Positions 2 through 14,536 of a stretch of DNA of 20,139 nucleotides are shown one piece after another (the first letter of the stretch is position 1; each line of letters begins with the position of its first letter). Below the pieces are notes generated by a model that had not been told where the DNA came from, searched no databases, and saw nothing but the letters and a program-made list of their open reading frames with translations. The DNA comes from a virus (lineage: Duplodnaviria > Heunggongvirae > Uroviricota > Caudoviricetes), in the IMG/VR virus record IMGVR_UViG_2728369187_000007, positions 1 to 20,139 of that record. One strand, written 5' to 3'. Both the position numbers and the translations under genes were made by a program.

Positions 2-1282
2 TTAATTTTTCATTGCTTCGTTATGGGGCATGGTTGGGGCAAACTCGCTTAACTGTGTATTTAACAAAGCTACCTGTGCATTATTGTTTTCAGACATCCA
101 TTTTCCGTATACCTGAAATACCATTTGCGCATCTGCATGGCCCATCTGGTTTGCTATAAATGCCGGGTTAGCACCAGCTGTCAGCGACCAGCAGGCATAA
201 GTATGTCTCGACTGATATGATTTTCGATGGCGGAGTCCGGCACGTTTTATCGCTGCGTCCCACATCTGCCTTATTGAGTCAACGGTAAAATGGTCACCAT
301 AATTTTTTACTCTCGCTGACACTTCAGGTTGAAAAACAAAGGTGCATTTATGTTTTTCTGTTCTGCCATACTCTCTGAGGTGAACATCAATGATATGCTC
401 TTTGCTCAGTCTCGTTAATGTCATCTGACTCCGGAGAGCGTCGATTGCTGGCTTAATAAGATGAATGACCCGATTGGTTCCCGCCTGTGTTTTTGGTACC
501 GTGAAACGGTCTTTTGCTAAATTTCTCCTGATCATCATTGTTCCATTTTTCAGATCTATGTCCTCCCATCCAAGTGCACACAGCTCACCAGGGCGAACGC
601 CAGTATAAACAGAAACACACCATAAATTTTTGGCTTGCTGATTTCTGCACGCATCGATAAGACGGATGAATTCCTCCCGCGAAAGAGGATCCGGAATGGT
701 TCTTGATTCCTTTAATGGCGAGATCCCCTTAAACGGGTTATCTGCCAGGTAACCGTTATCAACACCAAACTGGAACACGGCGTTAAGATTTGTCATGTAA
801 TTATTTACAGTTACAGCCGATCTCCCTGGTTGTGTAACAATATAGTTACTTTTGGGGCTCTGGTATCCAGTCAGTAGCTCTTTACGAACCTCCAGTAATT
901 TTTCTTTATTAATCGATGAGGCAAGATTTTTTTCACCGATTATGCTCAGGATATTTTTGATGACGGCACGGTATGTGTTGAGTGATGTTTTTGCGACTTC
1001 AGTTTCTTTCAGTGCCAGAAATTTTTCAGCCAGTTCTTTTATGGTTAAATCTTGTCGGGTCTCACCAAATTTTTCCAGATTGCGTGAGGAGGGAAACTGT
1101 TTTGCATAGTCGAAAACACCAGTTTTTATTGCGTAACAAACAGAGGCGCGTAGCTCACCTGCAACGCGCCTGTTTTTTGCTGTGTCAGGAACCCCCAGGT
1201 TTTCCCTGACTCTTACGCCTTTATAAACAAACCAGATACGTAATTTCCCTCCATGGTTTTCCACGCCTGTCGGATATTTCAT
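2..1282 (-). CDS. int: Tyrosine recombinase (phage integrase)
   Basis: C-terminal catalytic signature (SRHTYACW box II, then the tyrosine in VFQVYGKW). Last gene of the leftward operon. Start chosen at the Met at 1282 (MKYPTG...), which has an upstream GAGAAG; the ORF-track start at 1297 has no RBS. Confidence 0.85.
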   Translation of the reverse strand: MKYPTGVENHGGKLRIWFVYKGVRVRENLGVPDTAKNRRVAGELRASVCYAIKTGVFDYAKQFPSSRNLEKFGETRQDLTIKELAEKFLALKETEVAKTSLNTYRAVIKNILSIIGEKNLASSINKEKLLEVRKELLTGYQSPKSNYIVTQPGRSAVTVNNYMTNLNAVFQFGVDNGYLADNPFKGISPLKESRTIPDPLSREEFIRLIDACRNQQAKNLWCVSVYTGVRPGELCALGWEDIDLKNGTMMIRRNLAKDRFTVPKTQAGTNRVIHLIKPAIDALRSQMTLTRLSKEHIIDVHLREYGRTEKHKCTFVFQPEVSARVKNYGDHFTVDSIRQMWDAAIKRAGLRHRKSYQSRHTYACWSLTAGANPAFIANQMGHADAQMVFQVYGKWMSENNNAQVALLNTQLSEFAPTMPHNEAMKN

Positions 1283-1316
1283 TTCAACTTCTCTCATTAG
1301 TTAGTGTGGCTTTTAG

Positions 1317-1568
1317 TCAAGTAAGATGACGTCTTGGTCTTGCTGATGCCTGGCGCTCAATCCAGCGATCAATTTCTTCCAGGTTGTAAAAGCATGGACT
1401 GTTATCCCATGGCATACCGTCATGAGCGACATGCTTATATTCCCTTCCTTCCATAAACGATTTTTCCCGGGCCTTTTTTAACGTACCTTTTTTTATTCCT
1501 TTCAGCGCAATTAACTGCTCTTCGGATACCCATTTGCCGGGAGAGACAATCATGATTACTTCGCTCAT
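1317..1568 (-). CDS. xis: Excisionase-like small DNA-binding protein
   Basis: 83-aa basic protein immediately upstream of int on the same strand; size and position typical of a prophage excisionase. Family not verified. Confidence 0.55.
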   Translation of the reverse strand: MSEVIMIVSPGKWVSEEQLIALKGIKKGTLKKAREKSFMEGREYKHVAHDGMPWDNSPCFYNLEEIDRWIERQASARPRRHLT

Positions 1569-1640: not shown

Positions 1641-4112
1641 TTAAGAATCAGCCTGACTCGGGATCAGTTTTTGCCAGATAACTGAAACGTATTTTGCTTG
1701 GTAACGGGCGTCATCAAGTGCATTATGGCGCTCACCTTCGAATGGAATAGCCGTTCTGGCATCGAAATCTATGGCTTTCCCCAGCTCAACGATTGTGCGT
1801 ACATCGCGATCGTTGTAGTAACGCCACGGGCAGGGGATCCCCTGCCGTTCGTATGAACGGCGCAAAATCGTGTTGTCGAAGTTGGCTCCATTTCCCCAAA
1901 CCTGAACAAAAAATTCACCGGAGTTTTCGTCGATAAATTCCCGCAATTGTAACAGTGCATCATCTAACGGGATTTCATCGGTCATAATGGCAGATTGTGC
2001 TTCGCGTGATTGCTTAAGCCACCATTTAATGGTGTCCCGATCAATGACTCCGCCAGCAGTTTCCAGATCGATAGTCTTACTAAATTCCGGTCCTATATCT
2101 CCGGTTTGCGGATCGAAAAATATTGCACCTATTGAGATGATCGGTGCATCAGGATTTTTTCCCATGGTTTCAAGGTCGATCATTAGATGGTCACACGTCC
2201 TGCTGGTGGATGTGATTTCGTGATGACCGTTCACCTTAATTGAGTGATCTGCCGTCTCGCCAGTTTCATTATCGCTATTGTGATGCTGATTGCCGCCAGT
2301 GTTCTCCTTGTGTGGATGTTCAGCGCCTTCCATTTCCTCCGGATCATCTTCCTGAACTTCAACCTGATACTCTTCATCGAATGTTTCTTGGTATGTTGCG
2401 TCGCCCATCACCGCGCCACAATCAGGGCAGTTGCCGCCGCCGGTCTGACCGCAGGCGGTGCAGACTTTTTCCACTTCCTGTTGCGCCACTGGTTCAGGCT
2501 GTTTCGTTTCTGGCTCGTTTTGTAACGCATTTGGGCTGTTTTGTTCCGCTTTTTGGTAGTTCCGTTCCGATTCATGCTGGTTCTGGTTCACAGAATCGCG
2601 GGTCTGGATCCCCTTAACCCATTTCGGATCATTCGGGTCACTAATCCCTTCAACAAATTCACCATGTGATGCAGCAAGCAACTTATCGGCGTCAGGCTGG
2701 CTGATATTGGCTGCCTGCATAATTTTGTTTACTTCGTCAGCGGTAACTTTTATCGGCTCTGGTTGTTCTGAATCTTCAGCGGTATCTACATTTTGCGGTA
2801 AGCCCGTGTATGTGCCATTTTTTCGGGCAAAATATTCTTCTTTTGTGATTTCAGTGGCGCCAGCAGCCAGTGCCTTATCCAGACCAGAAAGTTTGTTTGC
2901 GCGACCGTATTTTTCTCCGTCCTTATCTGCGAAGAGGAAATAGAACGGCCCCTCACGCTCTACAGATGGTTCAGCTTCCGGCGCGGTTTCATTTTTTGGG
3001 ATATCAGATACCTCAGTTTCCACTGCATCAGTTTGTGTTTCTGATGACTGGAGAACATCAACAGTGCCCAGGTCTGTTTCTTCATTCTCAAACACGCCCT
3101 TTGTCGTCAGGTATTCGCAGATATATTTGTTCAGTGCTACGGGATCTTTGTGAATGTCGATCGGACGCTCACGGACAAGGCCAAAAATAGTTTGGCGGTC
3201 GTAGCGAAGGGCATCAGGCTGTTTGCGCATTGATGCCGAGATACGCTTCCAGTCTTCGCGGTCGTTGTCGATAACTTCTTTTTTTGCCCAGCGATGGATG
3301 CTGCCGTCAATGTTTCCGGCATCCACATCACCAGGCCAGAGAGCGTAGGCCAGTTCGTCATCCAGTGTTTTCCATGTCTGCTTGTATTCGCGATGAATGG
3401 CAGCAATGACCGGGCTGATTTTTCCTGTTGAATTTTCAGTGTACTGTTGATTGGCTCTGGCGCGGGCGAGATCAACAACAGACGTGTATTTTCCGGTTTC
3501 CTTGCGTTCACCTTCGCGACGTTTTTTCCAGATGCGCATCTCTGCCTGAATTTCGGGCCATTTAGCACCAGGAATACATTTATGCTTAACCCACCCAATG
3601 GCGTGCAACTTAAGCTCCGGATACATGGCGTTAACTTCTGGCATTTTCATCAACGCTTCAACGATATGTCCGTCGAATGTTGCCATGTCTTCCTGCAACA
3701 ATTCCTGTGCGCTAATAACCATATCAACGGTGATGTTTTCACATGTGTCGAACTTAACCATGACAGCGTTCTGTACTTCAGGGGCCAGCTTGTCAAAAGT
3801 GACGTTCATCGGATCGGATTCAGTCTCAACCGGGACAAAAGAAGCAGACTCCTCATCCCAGCGGTTTTCCTGCATATATTCAGCATCCCATGAATCGAGG
3901 GCAGGGCGGGGTATGCCAGGTTTATCCTCGCAGACAATAAATTTATAAGCGCAGTCCTGAGCAGCCGGATAATGTTCCAGGAACTGCCAGTGAAATTTTG
4001 CTCGAGCACGGCGTTCGTCGCCAGCTTCAATGGCTGTGGCTACAGCCACAGCGCCTTCTTCCCTTGTTGCCAGTTCGTCAGGAATAGCGGCGCAAATAAA
4101 GACTTTACTCAT
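1641..4112 (-). CDS. RecE-like exonuclease (exodeoxyribonuclease VIII-like) with C-terminal DEDD-type 3'-5' exonuclease domain
   Basis: 823-aa ORF. C-terminal LMIDLETMG matches the Exo I motif (D-x-E-T-x-G) of DnaQ-like exonucleases. Acidic low-complexity linker in the middle. Sits where lambda has exo. Confidence 0.7.
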   Translation of the reverse strand: MSKVFICAAIPDELATREEGAVAVATAIEAGDERRARAKFHWQFLEHYPAAQDCAYKFIVCEDKPGIPRPALDSWDAEYMQENRWDEESASFVPVETESDPMNVTFDKLAPEVQNAVMVKFDTCENITVDMVISAQELLQEDMATFDGHIVEALMKMPEVNAMYPELKLHAIGWVKHKCIPGAKWPEIQAEMRIWKKRREGERKETGKYTSVVDLARARANQQYTENSTGKISPVIAAIHREYKQTWKTLDDELAYALWPGDVDAGNIDGSIHRWAKKEVIDNDREDWKRISASMRKQPDALRYDRQTIFGLVRERPIDIHKDPVALNKYICEYLTTKGVFENEETDLGTVDVLQSSETQTDAVETEVSDIPKNETAPEAEPSVEREGPFYFLFADKDGEKYGRANKLSGLDKALAAGATEITKEEYFARKNGTYTGLPQNVDTAEDSEQPEPIKVTADEVNKIMQAANISQPDADKLLAASHGEFVEGISDPNDPKWVKGIQTRDSVNQNQHESERNYQKAEQNSPNALQNEPETKQPEPVAQQEVEKVCTACGQTGGGNCPDCGAVMGDATYQETFDEEYQVEVQEDDPEEMEGAEHPHKENTGGNQHHNSDNETGETADHSIKVNGHHEITSTSRTCDHLMIDLETMGKNPDAPIISIGAIFFDPQTGDIGPEFSKTIDLETAGGVIDRDTIKWWLKQSREAQSAIMTDEIPLDDALLQLREFIDENSGEFFVQVWGNGANFDNTILRRSYERQGIPCPWRYYNDRDVRTIVELGKAIDFDARTAIPFEGERHNALDDARYQAKYVSVIWQKLIPSQADS

Positions 4113-4205
4113 TTTGTTTTAACCTCATGACAGATTTAAGGATGAACAAATCCCTGCCATTGCTGGCATATAAGAATGAAACCGGATATTTATTACGGAA
4201 CTGTT

Positions 4206-4397
4206 TTAAAGACCTGCCGGGATTTCGATATTATCCTGGTGAATAACTTTATCGACCGGGTAACAGTTACCGGGAATTTTCTGTTCGGTTGCTGCAGTCA
4301 TACACTCCTGCATTGTCCTGTTAACACTGTCTGCAATATCAACTGGCTCTCCGGAAACAAGAAAAACTGTCAGAACAAGCGCAAATGCTGAATTCAT
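4206..4397 (-). CDS. ydfD: YdfD-like small lysis protein
   Basis: 63-aa product from the internal Met (MNSAFALVLTVFLVSG...), hydrophobic N-terminus. Its ATG overlaps the dicB stop (ATGA). Matches the Qin dicB-ydfD order and length as I recall them. Confidence 0.6.
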   Translation of the reverse strand: MNSAFALVLTVFLVSGEPVDIADSVNRTMQECMTAATEQKIPGNCYPVDKVIHQDNIEIPAGL

Positions 4398-4582
4398 TGT
4401 GTACATCCTTTTGGCATCAGACGTAAACGAGCCAGCATTGAAACAATGCATATTTTATTTAATAGCTCCCGTTCTTGTTTTCTCTTGTTAATGGCATCTT
4501 CAGTAAATACAGGGTTACTGATAGTGACACCAATTTCAAAACAACCTTCAGACGTATTAACGTTTGGTAATAACGTTTTCAT
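4394..4582 (-). CDS. dicB: DicB cell-division inhibitor
   Basis: 62-aa product from the internal Met (MKTLLPNVNTSEGCFEIGV...LMPKGCTQ), matching DicB as recalled. Lies just downstream of DicF on the same strand, as in Qin. Confidence 0.75.
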   Translation of the reverse strand: MKTLLPNVNTSEGCFEIGVTISNPVFTEDAINKRKQERELLNKICIVSMLARLRLMPKGCTQ

Positions 4583-4751
4583 TATCGCGTCCTCAACAAT
4601 GAATTTTGTGATGCAGTGCCTGGTGCCTCCAGGTGACGTTAACCAGTTAACAATTAACGCCGGATACAGAGAATCCACCCATAACACTGTTTTTGGTTTT
4701 AACTGTTCCGCGTGCGCTTAGCCGCATTCACCGCATCACAAAATTCACTTT

Positions 4752-4809
4752 AAAAATGGCGGCAGAGCAGTCACGGAGTAAAACTGATACCGCCAAACGT
4801 CACCAGAAA
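4752..4809 (-). ncRNA. dicF: DicF small regulatory RNA (ftsZ-targeting sRNA of Qin-type prophages)
   Basis: Reverse complement reads UUUCUGGUGACGUUUGGCGGUAUCAGUUUUACUCCGUGACUGCUCUGCCGCCAUUUUU, near-identical to the DicF sequence as I recall it. Ends in a GC stem plus U-run; located between the leader and dicB. Confidence 0.75.
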
Positions 4810-5084
4810 ATTGATAACAGAGGGCGTTGCAGCGGGGTTGTCACTTAAGCGTATGGTCAACCTGACAACTCGGTGTCCTCAACGGGGAAGGAATAACCCC
4901 GCCATACTTACCGCCGCGCCATTTCGCGGGTTGCCACAACCGGAAGCGCACGGTCGAATTAAATTTAACGACACCGTACAGTGAGACGAACTTCGCCGTG
5001 CGCTTTCGTGTTGTGTGCCTGCTTTTAACCACGTCAGGCGAGGTGGTATCCTTCTTATCCCGAATAACCAAGAAGGAAATCTAT

Positions 5085-5285
5085 ATGACTAAAGAAGAAT
5101 TTGTCTCTTATATTTTTGATAAAACGGTTGAAATGTATGCCGCTACTTACGGGTCCTGTAATCCTCTGAATAAACCAGAGGGGAAAGATGATTTCGACAA
5201 AATTTACCGCTTCTTGGAGGACCGCTATATCAAAAGGTTAGAGGACGCAGGGATCAAATCCCCAGTGAAGTCACCATTGTCCTGA
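5085..5285 (+). CDS. Hypothetical 66-aa protein (moron-like, opposite strand to the early operon)
   Basis: ATG at 5085 preceded by GAAGGA; possible promoter TTTAAC-17-TATCCT upstream. AT-rich. Converges on and overlaps the 3' end of the 5254..5631 gene by 32 bp. Confidence 0.4.
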   Translation: MTKEEFVSYIFDKTVEMYAATYGSCNPLNKPEGKDDFDKIYRFLEDRYIKRLEDAGIKSPVKSPLS

Positions 5286-5631
5286 GAACTTGCAGGACGT
5301 CATGATCGTAACTTCCATCCAAACCGCGACGGCAAATTGCTTCTCGTATTACCGGAAGCAGTTCGCTGGAAATCTCGGTGCATATTTCACCTGATAATAC
5401 GCCTGGCTCAAGTGAGAATATTGGTGAACTTACGGTCTTGGTCTCGACAGTTTCAGAGTCAGTGCCAACATTATAAAGCTCAACGAAAGCGGTCTTGATT
5501 TTCCGGGCCAGATCTTTTGCTGGCTCGCTTGCAATATCTTTCCCGATTTCTCGCAGCACAGAATGCAATGTATGAGCTGCTGTTTTCTGTACATCAGACG
5601 GTAAATCTTTAAATTCCATCGTCAGCCTCAT
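5254..5631 (-). CDS. Hypothetical acidic protein (125 aa) of the early leftward operon
   Basis: ATG overlaps the stop of the upstream gene (ATGA coupling); an alternative start at 5619 has a GAGG RBS. No motif recognised. Confidence 0.5.
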   Translation of the reverse strand: MRLTMEFKDLPSDVQKTAAHTLHSVLREIGKDIASEPAKDLARKIKTAFVELYNVGTDSETVETKTVSSPIFSLEPGVLSGEICTEISSELLPVIREAICRRGLDGSYDHDVLQVLRTMVTSLGI

Positions 5632-5783
5632 CAGTCAGTGTTTCTGGCTAACCAGCAACGCGCGCCAGATTCGGTTTTAAACGTTTTGCTTTTGGTATAC
5701 GTCATCGCGGTGAACGTGCCGTCCTGGTTGGGGAACACGCCACATACCAGAGATTCGCTGTTGCCAAGATCGATAGTATCCAT
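5631..5783 (-). CDS. Small protein (50 aa), YdfA-like by position (first gene of the DicA-repressed operon)
   Basis: Start at the internal Met (MDTIDLGNSE...) with a GAGG RBS 5 nt upstream. Lies immediately downstream of the pL-like promoter and operators. Confidence 0.5.
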   Translation of the reverse strand: MDTIDLGNSESLVCGVFPNQDGTFTAMTYTKSKTFKTESGARCWLARNTD

Positions 5784-5860: not shown

Positions 5861-5915
5861 AATTTAGAATAACCTAACATAAGAGGCAAGTGTTTTTTGT
5901 TAGATTAGTCTAACA
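5861..5915 (-). promoter_or_regulatory. Left operator/promoter region (OL/pL-like): two operator palindromes flanking a leftward promoter
   Basis: Perfect 18-bp palindrome TGTTAGA-TTAG-TCTAACA at 5898-5915 and a weaker site TTTAGA-ATAA-CCTAACA at 5863-5879. Minus-strand promoter candidate: -35 TTGCCT (5884-5889), 17-bp spacer, -10 TAAATT (5861-5866). Confidence 0.55.
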
Positions 5916-5951: not shown

Positions 5952-6359
5952 TTATTTTATTGATTTATTTTTACGCGCTTTAAGCATTTCTTCGAAGAGT
6001 TTGTTGAAGTTTTCTACTCTTGCGCGCATTTCAGACAGCAAGGCTTCCTGCTCGGAAGATGGAAGAGCATCGAATAATTCGATCAATTCTTTGTGGTTGG
6101 GAGTTAGCTCTGTTTCCACATGAAGTTCTTGTGCCGGCACTGGTGCCTTGTCTTCGTCACCAAACATTAGCCATGTAGGTGAGCACTTCAGAGCATCCGC
6201 TAAAGCAAACAATCGTTTTCCGACTGGCTGGGTTTCGTCTCTTTCCCATTGTGAAATTGTGACGTGAGCAACCCCAGCGAGGCGCGCAGCTTCTCGTTGT
6301 GTTAAGCGTAATTCTTTTCGTCGCGCCAGAACTCGCTGGCCTAGGGTTCTTGTATCCAT
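5952..6359 (-). CDS. dicA: DicA-like HTH (XRE-family) prophage repressor
   Basis: N-terminal HTH (LTQREAARLAGVAHVTISQWE). C-terminal half (CSPTWLMFGDEDK...EMRARVENFNKLFEEMLKAR) closely matches DicA as recalled. Divergent from the cro-like gene. Confidence 0.8.
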   Translation of the reverse strand: MDTRTLGQRVLARRKELRLTQREAARLAGVAHVTISQWERDETQPVGKRLFALADALKCSPTWLMFGDEDKAPVPAQELHVETELTPNHKELIELFDALPSSEQEALLSEMRARVENFNKLFEEMLKARKNKSIK

Positions 6360-6360
6360 A

Positions 6361-6426
6361 GTTAGGTAATTCTAATTTTTCTTGACTTAGGTATCCCGCG
6401 CACAATAATGTTAGAAAAGTCTAACA
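6361..6426 (+). promoter_or_regulatory. Right operator/promoter region (OR/pR-like) between repressor and cro-like gene
   Basis: Perfect 18-bp palindrome TGTTAGA-AAAG-TCTAACA at 6409-6426 and a weaker site GTTAGG-TAAT-TCTAAT at 6361-6376. Rightward promoter: -35 TTGACT (6382-6387), 16-bp spacer, -10 AATAAT (6404-6409). Confidence 0.6.
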
Positions 6427-6439
6427 ATAGGAGGCTTTG

Positions 6440-6667
6440 ATGCTTAAAGCTGACGCAATTACTTTTTTTGGCAGCAAAACAAAGCTTGCCAATGCCGCAG
6501 GAGTGAGACTGGCAAGTGTTGCTGCTTGGGGGATACTGGTTCCTGAAGGTCGCGCGATGCGTCTACAGGAGGCATCTGGCGGGGAGCTTCAGTATGATCC
6601 CAAAGTTTATGACGAATATCGTAAGACGAAGCGGGCGGGGCGGTTGAACAATGAAAATCACTCCTGA
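6440..6667 (+). CDS. dicC: DicC-like Cro-type regulator
   Basis: 75-aa protein from the ATG at 6440, with AGGAGG 5 nt upstream (the ORF-track start at 6437 is TTG). Divergent from the repressor; sequence resembles DicC/YdaS-type Cro proteins. Confidence 0.7.
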   Translation: MLKADAITFFGSKTKLANAAGVRLASVAAWGILVPEGRAMRLQEASGGELQYDPKVYDEYRKTKRAGRLNNENHS

Positions 6668-8896: not shown

Positions 8897-10384
8897 GTGG
8901 ACATTAGAGACTGGCTACCAGAATTTCAAGTTTCAGCAGAAACAGATCGGGACTTACAGACCTATTTTTTTAAGCTACCGGCGATAAAGGATATTATTGA
9001 AAGTAGGGCTTGGTTGGTTCTTGGAAGAAAAGGTACTGGTAAAACAGCCATTTATGAACACCTTAGAAGAGGAAAACCAGCCAATCTCAACGGGTTTTAC
9101 TCAGTATGTCTAAATTTTAGTGACTATCCATGGCCAGCCCATCAACTTTACAAGGATGCAATGGCTGGAGAACTTTCCGCTTATCAAAAAAGTTGGATGT
9201 ATCTTTTTTATATTAAGGCATTATCTAAACTTATTGAAATAAAAAATGATGCTGGAGAGACTTTAAACAAAGATCTAACGTGGGCACATAATTATATCAA
9301 AACTATCTTTGGTAGTCCCGACCCAACTCTTAGGGAGGTTTTGTTTTCAAAAATAACCAGATTAAAAACCATAAAAGGGCCCAGTGCTGGTCTTAATGAA
9401 GTATCATTGGACGCAGGTGAAATTTCGTTAGAGGAAGTTGCTGAGAATGCTCAGCTAAAGCAAAAGCTAAGAGCTAATGCTTTCACATTGCTTACGTATT
9501 TTGAAAAAATTTTTAAAGATAACATTGGTAATGAAAAAATAATTATCGCCCTTGACCAATTAGACGAAAACTGGCTAGAGGGGCAAATTGAAGAATATAG
9601 TAAGGTTTTAATAAATCTGCTAAATGTCTGTAGAAACATAGCATCTGATGAACGCCTCAATGATAAATTAAAAGTCATTCCCTTCCTACGAACGGATATT
9701 TATCATTCTTTGAAATTCAATGATAAAAACAAATTATTGCAAGATAGTGCTATCATAATCTCATGGAATGAAAATAATCTAAACGATATGTATTATGAGA
9801 GGATAAAGAAATACAAACCTAATGATCTCATATTAGATGACGAAAAGGACAGATCTGGGAAAGTATTTGAGGTTTCATTCGTTAGGCAGGGGACTCCTCC
9901 ATTTAAATATATATGTCGCCGTTCTTTCTTTAGGCCTAGGGATATTATTGTCTACTTCAACAAAATTAGGGCATGTCATAAAAATAATGTCTCAGGTCTT
10001 TACACTTCCAATGAGCTTTATGAAGCTGACCGTGAAGCATCTATAAGTGTGTACAATGAGGTGATTGATGAATGGTCCAACCAATTCCCTGAAATTGAGA
10101 ACTTACTAACTGTTCTTCAAACTATCCAAGTAGAAACATTCGATTTTAATGATTTCTCCGAGAAGTGCCGTAATGAATTTGCAGGTATTTCTGATGGGGT
10201 GATACGTCAATATATCAACTTCCTGTTTGATAACTCACTTATCGGACAAAAAAAACAAGGTAGATGGGAATACGTAAGTAGTTTGCCTAACTTAAAAATT
10301 AATCTACAAAATGAGTTTAGGACACATCATGCTTTAAAATACAGGTTGCATTTAATAGAAAGCAGACCGAGCCAAAATATTTAG
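8897..10384 (+). CDS. P-loop NTPase of unknown family (495 aa) on an AT-rich island; candidate accessory/defence gene
   Basis: GTG start with a GAGG RBS 5 nt upstream; in-frame stop 18 nt upstream. Walker A GRKGTGKT (aa 43-50); candidate Walker B IIIALDQLDE (about aa 215-224). Markedly AT-rich relative to flanks, preceded by about 315 bp of AT-rich non-coding DNA. Confidence 0.85.
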   Translation: MDIRDWLPEFQVSAETDRDLQTYFFKLPAIKDIIESRAWLVLGRKGTGKTAIYEHLRRGKPANLNGFYSVCLNFSDYPWPAHQLYKDAMAGELSAYQKSWMYLFYIKALSKLIEIKNDAGETLNKDLTWAHNYIKTIFGSPDPTLREVLFSKITRLKTIKGPSAGLNEVSLDAGEISLEEVAENAQLKQKLRANAFTLLTYFEKIFKDNIGNEKIIIALDQLDENWLEGQIEEYSKVLINLLNVCRNIASDERLNDKLKVIPFLRTDIYHSLKFNDKNKLLQDSAIIISWNENNLNDMYYERIKKYKPNDLILDDEKDRSGKVFEVSFVRQGTPPFKYICRRSFFRPRDIIVYFNKIRACHKNNVSGLYTSNELYEADREASISVYNEVIDEWSNQFPEIENLLTVLQTIQVETFDFNDFSEKCRNEFAGISDGVIRQYINFLFDNSLIGQKKQGRWEYVSSLPNLKINLQNEFRTHHALKYRLHLIESRPSQNI

Positions 10385-10656
10385 CTTACATCCATCTCCA
10401 TTAAGAAATCTTGCTATTGTTCTTATGGATCGTCTTTCTGACTGATTTCATATTGGCGAGGTAAAGGTAGTTAAGTAGAATGGCTGCGGGTGCTTGAGGC
10501 TATCTGCCTCGGGCATGAACACCAAAGGCAGATAGAGAAAAGCCCCAGTTAACATTACGCGTCCTGCAAGACGCTTAACATTAATCTGAGGCTCAATCTA
10601 TGAACGGCAAATCTAGGTTAGCCTCTTACGTGCCGAAAGGCAAGGAGAAGCAGGCT

Positions 10657-10812
10657 ATGAAGCAGCAAAAGGCGATGTTAATCGCCCTGATCGTCATCTG
10701 TTTAACCGTCATAGTGACGGCACTGGTAACGAGGAAAGACCTCTGCGAGGTACGAATCCGAACCGGCCAGACGGAGGTCGCTGTCTTCACAGCTTACGAA
10801 CCTGAGGAGTAA
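10657..10812 (+). CDS. hokD: Hok/Gef-family membrane toxin (HokD/RelF-like)
   Basis: 51-aa product MKQQKAMLIALIVICLTVIVTALVTRKDLCEVRIRTGQTEVAVFTAYEPEE with the single TM helix and conserved Cys of Hok toxins. RBS AAGGAGAAG upstream of the ATG at 10657. Confidence 0.85.
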   Translation: MKQQKAMLIALIVICLTVIVTALVTRKDLCEVRIRTGQTEVAVFTAYEPEE

Positions 10813-12986: not shown

Positions 12987-13346
12987 ATGCGTATAGAGTT
13001 TGTTTTGCCTTATCCGCCGACGGTGAATACTTACTGGCGACGTCGTGGCAACACATATTTTGTATCAAAAGTCGGTGAGCGTTATCGCCGTGATGTGGCA
13101 CTAATTGTTCGCCAGCAGCGGTTGAAATTAAACCTGTCCGGAAGGCTGGCAATAAAAATTATTGCAGAGCCACCGGATAAGCGCCGCCGCGACCTGGACA
13201 ATATCCTGAAGGCACCACTGGATGCGCTGACGCATGCCGGACTTCTTATAGACGACGAGCAGTTTGATGAAATCAATATTGTGCGCGGACTGCCTGTTCC
13301 TGGTGGTCGGCTGGGGATAAAAATCACAGAACTGGAGTGCGCATGA
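12987..13346 (+). CDS. rusA: RusA-family Holliday junction resolvase
   Basis: 119 aa with the conserved PDKRRRDLDN catalytic region and a GGRL...I motif near the C-terminus. RBS AAAGAGG. Confidence 0.85.
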   Translation: MRIEFVLPYPPTVNTYWRRRGNTYFVSKVGERYRRDVALIVRQQRLKLNLSGRLAIKIIAEPPDKRRRDLDNILKAPLDALTHAGLLIDDEQFDEINIVRGLPVPGGRLGIKITELECA

Positions 13347-14032
13347 ATAACCAGTATTTACAGTTTGTGCGTGAGCAGCTCATTATCGCTACCGCTGATT
13401 TGAGTGGGGCAACAAAAGGTCAGCTTGAAGCCTGGCAGGAGAATGCCATGTTTGATACAGGGCGTTACAGGCGTAAAAAAATCCGGTACCGCGATGAAGT
13501 GACTGGAAGAATGATAACGCGGGATAGTCCACCGATACCGGGAAAACAATCACTGGCGAAAGGCTCATCAATTGCTCTGGTAAGTCAGGTTGAGTTTTCG
13601 ACATCATCATGGCGACGGGCAGTTCTGTCTCTTGAAGAACATCATAAAGCCTGGTTGTTGTGGTGTTACAGCGGGATTATTTGTTGGGAATATCAGATCG
13701 CGATAACACAGTGGGCGTGGAATGAATTTAATACTCAATCCGGTACCAGAAAAATTGCAGGGAAAACGCAGGAACGCCTGAAAAAATTAATCTGGCTGGC
13801 GGCGCAGGCAGTAAAAGCAGAACTTTTTGGTGGGGAAGGTTATGAATACCAGGAGCTGGCATTACTGGCGGGAGTGACAACTAAAAACTGGTCCAAAACA
13901 TTTACTCGTCACTGGGTTGCAATGAAACACATTTTTCACCGACTTGATAGTGAGGCTTTATTGTTTGTAATGAGAACACGTTCAAAACAAAAGGCGGCAT
14001 TTTCAAAGCAAAGTGTTGCAAAAGTAGATTGA
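13343..14032 (+). CDS. Late-gene antiterminator Q-like protein (putative)
   Basis: 229 aa; ATG overlaps the rusA stop (ATGA). Last gene before the promoter/terminator/lysis region. Assignment is by position, not by a recognised motif. Confidence 0.5.
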   Translation: MNNQYLQFVREQLIIATADLSGATKGQLEAWQENAMFDTGRYRRKKIRYRDEVTGRMITRDSPPIPGKQSLAKGSSIALVSQVEFSTSSWRRAVLSLEEHHKAWLLWCYSGIICWEYQIAITQWAWNEFNTQSGTRKIAGKTQERLKKLIWLAAQAVKAELFGGEGYEYQELALLAGVTTKNWSKTFTRHWVAMKHIFHRLDSEALLFVMRTRSKQKAAFSKQSVAKVD

Positions 14033-14226: not shown

Positions 14227-14302
14227 GGCCCTTTAGCTCAGTGGTGAGAGCGAGCGACTCATAATCGCCAGGTCGCTGGTTCAAATCCAGCAAGGGCCAC
14301 CA
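14227..14302 (+). tRNA. tRNA with anticodon CAT (elongator Met or Ile2-type)
   Basis: 76 nt. 7-bp acceptor stem GGCCCTT/AAGGGCC, D-arm GCTC...GAGC, anticodon loop CTCATAA, T-arm GCTGG-TTCAAAT-CCAGC, encoded CCA. G1-C72 pair argues against an initiator. Confidence 0.85.
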
Positions 14303-14303
14303 G

Positions 14304-14380
14304 CCGCCACTAGCTCATCAGGAAAGAGCGTCAACCCTTTAAGTTGAGTGTGCGAGGTTCGAGTCCCCGGTGGCGGTCCA
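14304..14380 (+). tRNA. tRNA-like gene, anticodon TTT (Lys) as read, atypical anticodon loop
   Basis: 77 nt. Perfect 7-bp acceptor stem, D-arm GCTC...GAGC, anticodon stem TCAAC/GTTGA with loop CCTTTAA (C at position 33), T-loop TTCGAGT with one A-C mismatch in the T-stem, encoded CCA. Confidence 0.6.
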
Positions 14381-14382
14381 GT

Positions 14383-14458
<76 letters not shown>

Positions 14459-14461
14459 TAT

Positions 14462-14536
<75 letters not shown>

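Follow-up and report, generated by a model that had tools for sequence, protein, structure and literature searches.

A DicF–DicB–YdfD Cassette in the Leftward Early Operon of a Qin/Tritos-Type Lambdoid Prophage

In the cryptic prophage Qin of Escherichia coli K-12, the early genes ydfABC are followed by the small RNA (sRNA) DicF, the cell-division inhibitor DicB, and the lysis protein YdfD, together the dicBF cassette. We focus here on such a cassette on the minus strand of a 20,139-nucleotide (nt) stretch of tailed-phage DNA (IMG/VR record IMGVR_UViG_2728369187_000007, positions 1 to 20,139), and this whole stretch is termed the window below. The identity, order, and intactness of its parts, their predicted structures, the operators upstream, and the distribution of the cassette are described, and the K-12 mechanism is considered in their light. 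In K-12, RNase III yields a 190-nt intermediate, after which RNase E makes the 5′ end of the 53-nt DicF; the 3′ end arises either at a Rho-independent terminator or by an RNase III cut in read-through RNA, which affords a 72-nt form (PMC10448788, PMC5069750, PMC9438474). Together with Hfq, DicF represses ftsZ, manX, xylR, and pykA (PMC5069750, PMC9438474). DicB prevents FtsZ-ring formation via MinC, and YdfD binds IspG and lyses dividing cells, a lysis that DicB counteracts (PMC8835842). Inhibition of ManYZ-dependent phage entry by DicB is described in a further study (PMC6832061).

Related cassettes have been found well beyond Qin. That O157:H7 and other strains carry multiple dicBF copies, located in different prophages, was reported in 2016 (PMC5069750). 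Escherichia phage Tritos (OV696610.1), the spontaneously induced prophage 3 of strain LF82, forms plaques, and its virions were seen by electron microscopy (PMC9928086); its record gives the order CI, ydfABC, an annotated DicF, dicB, ydfD, an exonuclease of 823 amino acids (aa), xis, and int. Tritos also serves as the prototype of lambdoid recombination modules that possess a nuclease, lack an annealing protein or an anti-RecBCD function, and carry many Chi sites (PMC12315714). The cassette, its processing and targets, its wide distribution among E. coli prophages, and its intact-operon form, represented by Tritos, are therefore already known, and of the whole locus only the structured DicF–dicB leader looks under-described.

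The cassette and its predicted mode of action

We read the locus as the canonical dicBF cassette (DicF, DicB, and YdfD) of a lambdoid prophage of the Qin/Tritos type, carried in a leftward early operon under repressor control in which all genes are unbroken, and put the probability of this reading at about 0.92. No finding contradicts the identification of DicF, DicB, and YdfD. The parts that carry it are as follows, in the direction of transcription.

4810–5026, minus strand: leader of the DicF precursor, homologous to K-12 by alignment and starting at about 5026
4757–4809, minus strand: DicF sRNA, comprising the 5′ seed and terminator hairpin (Rfam RF00039, K-12 alignment, fold)
4583–4756, minus strand: structured spacer forming the dicB 5′ leader, STnc100-like (folding, Rfam match below threshold, consensus structure)
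4394–4582, minus strand: dicB, 62-aa cell-division inhibitor (Pfam PF05358, K-12 alignment, dicB annotation in matching RefSeq genomes)
4206–4397, minus strand: ydfD, 63-aa lysis protein of the DUF1482 family (Pfam PF07358, K-12 alignment, "lysis protein YdfD" in matching genomes)

The original prediction placed a near-exact DicF at 4752–4809 on the minus strand, and both homology tests bear it out. The Rfam model RF00039 matches positions 4757–4808 (minus strand) over its entire length (model positions 1–52 of 52) with 73.4 bits against a gathering score of 48 (E = 8.5e-15), and direct alignment of the 53-nt stretch 4757–4809 with dicF of K-12 reveals 52 of 53 identical nucleotides. The sole change, C to A, affects the last base, 3′ of the terminator stem, and leaves nucleotides 1–52 unchanged. 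The U-tract of the terminator runs on to 4752, and the predicted segment corresponds to DicF plus this tract. Folded alone, DicF displays a 14-nt free 5′ strand and a terminator hairpin followed by AUUUUU (−17.5 kcal/mol), with minimum free energy (MFE) and centroid folds in agreement; an automated terminator scan missed this hairpin because its loop exceeds the limit of the scanner, and the terminator was found by folding instead.

Upstream of DicF, the leader contains a long hairpin at about 4933–5018, present in both MFE and centroid folds and likely, as modeled, to be an RNase III substrate, as well as an AU-rich RNase E site directly 5′ of DicF. Transferred to this sequence, the published 190-nt RNase III species of K-12 would begin at about 4946, inside the 3′ arm of the hairpin. 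In the predicted folds, the RNase III ends published for the 190-nt and 72-nt species fall in this hairpin and in a duplex downstream of DicF, respectively (PMC10448788, PMC5069750, PMC9438474). Leader, DicF, and spacer align with the K-12 copies at approximately 98–99% identity. The homology to K-12 starts at about 5026, a mosaic boundary upstream of which the window is occupied by a different module.

The two small proteins predicted alongside DicF were likewise recovered by profile and pairwise comparison. The DicB of the original prediction, 62 aa long, matches PF05358 from end to end (profile positions 1–62 of 62; 136 bits against a threshold of 27) and differs from K-12 DicB at a single residue (61/62 identical; A61T). 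The overlap that had been proposed between the dicB stop and the ydfD start is present in the sequence as ATGA at 4394–4397, and an overlapping ydfD-like gene comes after almost all dicB-like genes of phage contigs. YdfD matches DUF1482 (PF07358) with 83.3 bits against a threshold of 25 and is identical to K-12 YdfD at 60 of 63 positions (V6A, V23D, H26N), with Cys32 and Cys45 retained. Its predicted identity as a YdfD-like 63-aa protein stands, and its description as hydrophobic has to be narrowed, hydrophobicity being confined to approximately the first 15 residues.

Because DicF matches K-12 at every position that matters and the proteins are 95–98% identical, the published K-12 mechanism can be provisionally transferred to this prophage. 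Transcription would start upstream of a ydfA-like gene once a DicA-like repressor leaves its TGTTAG-N6-CTAACA operators, and most transcripts would end at the DicF terminator. RNase III cleavage in the upstream hairpin and RNase E cleavage at the DicF 5′ end would release the 53-nt sRNA, which, with Hfq, would block translation of ftsZ and of manX, xylR, and pykA. Read-through RNA would carry the structured spacer, where a second RNase III cut would give the 72-nt DicF, and would encode both proteins: DicB, directing MinC to the division ring and also inhibiting ManYZ, and YdfD, inhibiting IspG and lysing dividing cells unless division is blocked. For DicB, we infer MinC binding, a ZipA-dependent block of division, and ManYZ inhibition from the tested protein, which is 98% identical (PMC8835842, PMC6832061). 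By analogy, YdfD would act here as an IspG-binding lysis protein, and analogy likewise suggests the processing and targets of DicF and any read-through into the genes downstream of ydfD.

The structured spacer between DicF and dicB

The 174-nt spacer between DicF and dicB folds with an MFE of −65.5 kcal/mol (z = −5.98), a stability reached by none of 200 shuffled sequences. In the predicted fold, the DicF U-tract and the next 23 nt pair with the sequence up to and including the Shine–Dalgarno motif GAGGA of dicB, creating a closing duplex of approximately 28 base pairs (bp) between 4729–4756 and about 4590–4617, in which the last seven pairs are weak A–U and G–U pairs; two conserved hairpins lie inside. 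DicF position 72 corresponds to 4738, in the middle of the 5′ arm of this duplex. The fold thus fits a natural RNase III substrate that would explain the published 72-nt DicF 3′ end. The same closing stem may gate translation of dicB.

When searched against Rfam, the spacer aligned to the entire 206-position model of STnc100 (RF02076; STnc100/PasD prophage sRNAs) at 4550–4759 (minus strand; E = 3e-6), with 36.3 bits against a gathering score of 47 and hence below the membership cutoff. The two share the closing stem and both internal hairpins, including the element CACC(U/G)GGAGGCACC(A/C)GGCAC. They differ in that the spacer falls short of the gathering score and in that the STnc100 copies of the literature are located elsewhere in the phage, for instance downstream of stx2 (PMC12370729). 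In two studies of STnc100, including the latter, a link to the DicF locus is not drawn; one names neither DicF nor dicB, and the other refers to DicF a single time, in passing.

To place the spacer in its genomic contexts, copies were gathered from IMG/VR by an exact 20-nt hairpin motif of the spacer, which returned 110 usable contexts. DicF upstream and a DicB-like gene downstream flank 66 of these. Another 16 display a different sRNA body upstream together with a 77-aa gene that is annotated as Kil in Shigella phage 75/02 Stx, and mixed combinations of sRNA and downstream gene also occur among the 110. A consensus structure built from 59 distinct spacer sequences contains 37 pairs, with 99% of pair cells canonical and few compensatory changes; given that the copies are motif-selected and very similar, the covariation test is limited, and the 99% canonical pairing counts as weak support.

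In Shigella phage 75/02 Stx (KF766125.2, 3540–3790), the DicF slot holds another sRNA-like sequence, whose terminator hairpin, GGCGGACAUC...GAUGUCCGCC, is followed by Us and whose 5′ single strand differs from that of DicF. Conservation is seen in the flanks and in the downstream leader, after which comes a gene annotated as Kil. A 79%-identical stretch in this phage was considered as a divergent DicF and rejected, as no Rfam DicF match was obtained even at E <= 1 and the alignment displays a different sRNA body.

These contexts invite a speculative proposal, which we regard as rather unlikely to hold in full. The spacer may constitute a conserved "adapter" in the early-left operons of many enterobacterial phages, its duplex tying the terminator tail of an upstream sRNA (DicF or another) to the ribosome-binding region of a division inhibitor (DicB or a Kil-annotated protein). 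Cleavage of read-through RNA by RNase III would then both define an alternative 3′ terminus for the sRNA and regulate translation of the toxic protein, and the element would be a diverged relative of STnc100/PasD.

Operon context and alternative readings

The immunity region, the genes preceding the DicF leader, and the genes beyond ydfD frame the cassette as follows.

6409–6667, plus strand: operator (6409–6426, perfect palindrome) and DicC/Cro-like gene (6437–6667; Pfam P22_Cro), divergent from the repressor gene
5952–6359, minus strand: DicA-like helix-turn-helix (HTH) repressor (Pfam HTH_3)
5861–5915, minus strand: putative early-left promoter, equivalent to dicBp, with operators (alignment with the K-12 region upstream of ydfA)
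5631–5783, minus strand: ydfA-like first gene of the operon (DUF1391; Pfam PF07151, 94 bits)
5254–5631, minus strand: open reading frame (ORF) of 121–125 aa at the ydfB/ydfC position (phrog_33007, 275 bits, unknown function)
5085–5285, plus strand: convergent 66-aa ORF inside the early-left operon, with a good ribosome-binding site (phrog_34441, unknown function)
4155–4168, minus strand: weak terminator-like hairpin in the ydfD–exonuclease gap (consensus scan only; 5-bp stem, poor T-tract)
1641–4112, minus strand: 823-aa exonuclease with C-terminal DEDDh domain (Pfam PF16473, phrog_2082, K-12 ydfE alignment)
1317–1568, minus strand: excisionase gene xis (DUF1233; Pfam PF06806, 108 bits)
2–1297, minus strand: intact tyrosine integrase gene int (Pfam Arm-DNA-bind_2 and Phage_integrase)

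A simple promoter scan returned no minus-strand promoter upstream of the ydfA-like gene, and the promoter was located by alignment with K-12. Its −35 element (TTGCCT, 5884–5889) and −10 element (TAAATT, 5861–5866), separated by 17 nt, align with the region upstream of K-12 ydfA, and from position and homology the segment 5861–5889 is probably the equivalent of dicBp. Perfect TGTTAG-N6-CTAACA operators are found at 5898–5915 and 6409–6426 and a degenerate copy at 5862–5879, all of which align with K-12; across the whole window, the operator pattern matched four times against 0.69 expected by chance. The repressor is 58.6% identical to K-12 DicA and 100% identical to the repressor of the E. coli C prophage, and it consists of the HTH domain only, without a self-cleaving peptidase S24 domain. 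The DicC/Cro-like product is 86.7% identical to K-12 DicC.

Within the operon, the ydfA-like product is 87.8% identical to K-12 YdfA. The product of the 121–125-aa ORF gave no meaningful alignment to K-12 YdfB or YdfC and is identical to that of an E. coli C gene. The 66-aa ORF sits between this gene and the DicF leader and overlaps the 3′ end of the former by 32 nt; in E. coli C it bears the annotation "hypothetical", and K-12 lacks it. Domain and family profile searches recognized no N-like antiterminator among the operon ORFs.

Downstream of ydfD, after a gap of 93 nt, the exonuclease, xis, and int genes are all uninterrupted, in keeping with the predicted exo–xis–int order. The name "exo" calls for correction, in that the enzyme is of the DEDDh 3′–5′ type and not of the lambda Exo/RecE type. 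The 823-aa protein displays an Rv2179c-like domain (PF16473, 226 bits, residues 642–813), with RNase_T as the only other Pfam match and no PD-(D/E)XK domain (YqaJ, Exonuc_VIII) among its Pfam matches. It also matches phrog_2082 "exonuclease" over its full length, and the K-12 pseudogene ydfE aligns to residues 1–256. The ORF list contains no annealing-protein gene between ydfD and xis, and neither an annealing protein nor Gam is encoded beside the exonuclease. Twelve Chi octamers occur in the 20 kb, eight on the plus strand (2202, 11966, 12023, 14155, 15837, 17178, 19333, 19689) and four on the minus strand (12556, 12608, 14297, 16581). This Chi content and its 8:4 bias to the plus strand fit the Chi-rich, recombinase-poor Tritos class (PMC12315714).

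The remainder of the window contains full-length replication, hok/sok, RusA, Q, lysis, and terminase genes, and nothing in the 20 kb looks degraded. Genes for integration, immunity, replication, antitermination, lysis, and packaging are thus full-length within the window, which does not reach the head and tail genes or the attachment sites. Several features of this region are observations in their own right. A 495-aa P-loop ATPase of the Sll1717 family (8897–10384, plus strand; NCBIfam NF047389, 250 bits) has 35% G+C against 47.5% for the window and is located between the replication genes and hok/sok. It looks like an acquired moron and is possibly a defense gene; its sole PADLOC match is weak (PDC-M28C, 20.6 bits). 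It was the only one of ten neighboring proteins named by NCBIfam, and PADLOC returned no match for the 66-aa ORF, the 125-aa ORF, or the exonuclease. A hok/sok-type type I toxin–antitoxin locus follows at 10488–10812 (plus strand; Rfam sok, 110 bits), where an overlapping 70-aa ORF (10600–10812) contains a Hok-like peptide. Four tandem tRNA genes (14227–14536, plus strand; Met-CAT, Lys-TTT, Thr-TGT, Gly-TCC) are located between the Q-like antiterminator (13337–14032) and the holin gene (14829).

Four points weigh against reading the locus as a fully functional canonical cassette. Transcription could suffer interference from the convergent 66-aa ORF, which is embedded in the operon ahead of the DicF leader. 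A tblastn search of the 20-kb window found no homologue of Rem, the antirepressor of the E. coli C and Qin prophages. All three YdfD substitutions (V6A, V23D, and H26N) fall in the N-terminal domain (residues 1–28) that binds IspG in K-12 (PMC8835842), and lysis potency could differ. Lastly, the duplex of DicF with the K-12 ftsZ leader, which spans the start codon, speaks for the identification with a predicted energy of −39 kcal/mol versus −31 ± 4.2 for shuffled DicF, but only modestly, as this energy is attained by 21 of 500 shuffles. Taken by itself, the energy comparison is weak, and target pairing (ftsZ, manX, xylR, pykA) is accepted because nucleotides 1–52 match K-12.

How far the early operon extends is a separate matter. 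The cassette and the exonuclease–xis–int genes may be adjacent yet separate transcription units, with the early-left RNA ending at the DicF terminator or just past ydfD and exo, xis, and int using their own signals, such that a "complete early operon" would describe gene order only. We consider this plausible while leaning against it. A Rho-independent terminator closes DicF, a terminator-like hairpin lies at 4155–4168, an N-like antiterminator is missing from the recognized operon ORFs, and northern blots in K-12 detected ydfABC-dicF and ydfABC-dicFB-ydfD RNAs and none reaching past ydfD (PMC10448788). The K-12 locus, however, is disrupted by IS2 just downstream, and its transcripts may not represent those of an intact phage; the hairpin at 4155–4168 is weak; the exonuclease gene begins only 93 nt after ydfD; and all genes from the ydfA-like gene through int share one strand, bar the embedded convergent ORF. 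Their position suggests that the cassette and exo–xis–int may share a single transcript. That the cassette might instead be a decaying, nonfunctional remnant, as in cryptic Qin, is very improbable. Most experimental work has indeed been done on a cryptic prophage, and the window stops before the tail genes, which limits any judgment of prophage completeness, but the operon genes are free of frameshifts and stop codons, and the integrase, excisionase, exonuclease, replication, Q, lysis, and terminase genes in the window are full-length. The 98–99% identity of leader, DicF, and spacer is, moreover, to functional copies. The original prediction of an intact cassette rather than a remnant is upheld by the unbroken operon genes, by the intact exonuclease–xis–int genes, and by the shared layout of Tritos.

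A further alternative concerns what the canonical cassette is kept for. It may be retained mainly for the benefit of the lysogen and not for the lytic cycle, through low-level or stationary-phase expression, exclusion of ManYZ-dependent phages by DicB, and regulation of metabolism or virulence by DicF, an explanation to which we give somewhat less than even odds. The cassette is kept in most E. coli genomes, often in multiple copies (median two, up to nine) and in defective prophages as well. DicF builds up in stationary phase, and dicBp is on in a subpopulation of cells (PMC10448788); DicB, for its part, protects against lambda-type infection (PMC6832061). Conversely, the cassette occupies the position of lambda kil under direct repressor control, and in other phages this leader is found in front of a gene annotated as Kil; both observations point to an early role in the lytic cycle. 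A lytic role and a benefit to the lysogen are in any case not mutually exclusive. An intact-looking prophage with DicF identical to that of K-12 over nucleotides 1–52 and near-identical DicB and YdfD would offer a convenient system for defining what the canonical cassette does for its own phage. It might block division ahead of lysis, affect burst size, or exclude other phages, and work on cryptic Qin cannot answer which of these applies.

Distribution and comparison with known systems

A search with the 751-bp cassette retrieved matches in 4653 of 5426 complete E. coli genomes, with a median of two copies and a maximum of nine. The 4.9-kb block from int to DicF is present at coverage of at least 80% in 2257 of the 5426, and a search of the phage collection found the full cassette in eight sequenced phages. 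Searched as a whole, the window is a mosaic whose coverage stays at or below 70% in every complete E. coli genome of the collection; its early-left module has matches in E. coli C and Tritos, its other modules in different strains. One match of a different kind lies in the 254-kb jumbo-phage record of Aeromonas phage AP1 (MT713136.1), where 247 bp (2501–2747), approximately 4.5 kb from the record end, are 99.6% identical to the DicF of the window and the leader downstream of it. Contamination or a chimeric assembly is suspected.

Among the closest described relatives of the locus are Escherichia phage Tritos and its relatives HannyBb, PhiR42_1, and mEp460_ev081, which display the same layout of DicF, dicB, ydfD, 823-aa exonuclease, xis, and int. 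Cassette DNA is 99.1% identical to that of Tritos, as are the downstream proteins at 99.1% (exonuclease), 100% (excisionase), and 98.8% (integrase, 426 aa). The two part ways upstream of the cassette, where the Tritos CI is only 31% identical to the repressor of the window and where Tritos retains a K-12-type ydfABC.

Qin of K-12 (ydfABC-dicF-dicB-ydfD) shares the gene order including the ATGA overlap, near-identical DicF, DicB, YdfD, leader, and spacer, and a DicA/DicC-type immunity region upstream with the same operator motif. Downstream, Qin keeps only the pseudogenes ydfE, insD, and intQ, whereas the exonuclease, xis, and int of the window are full-length. The window further differs in the unrelated 121–125-aa gene and the convergent 66-aa ORF at the ydfB/ydfC position and in a repressor that is 58.6% identical to DicA.

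A broader parallel is provided by kil of phage lambda, likewise a small division inhibitor expressed from a repressor-controlled leftward early operon, upstream of recombination and integration genes. The parallel extends to other phages in which a 77-aa gene annotated as Kil takes the place of dicB behind the same structured leader. Kil of lambda, however, bears no sequence relation to DicB, which works through MinC, and the dicBF cassette adds an sRNA and a lysis protein to the division inhibitor.

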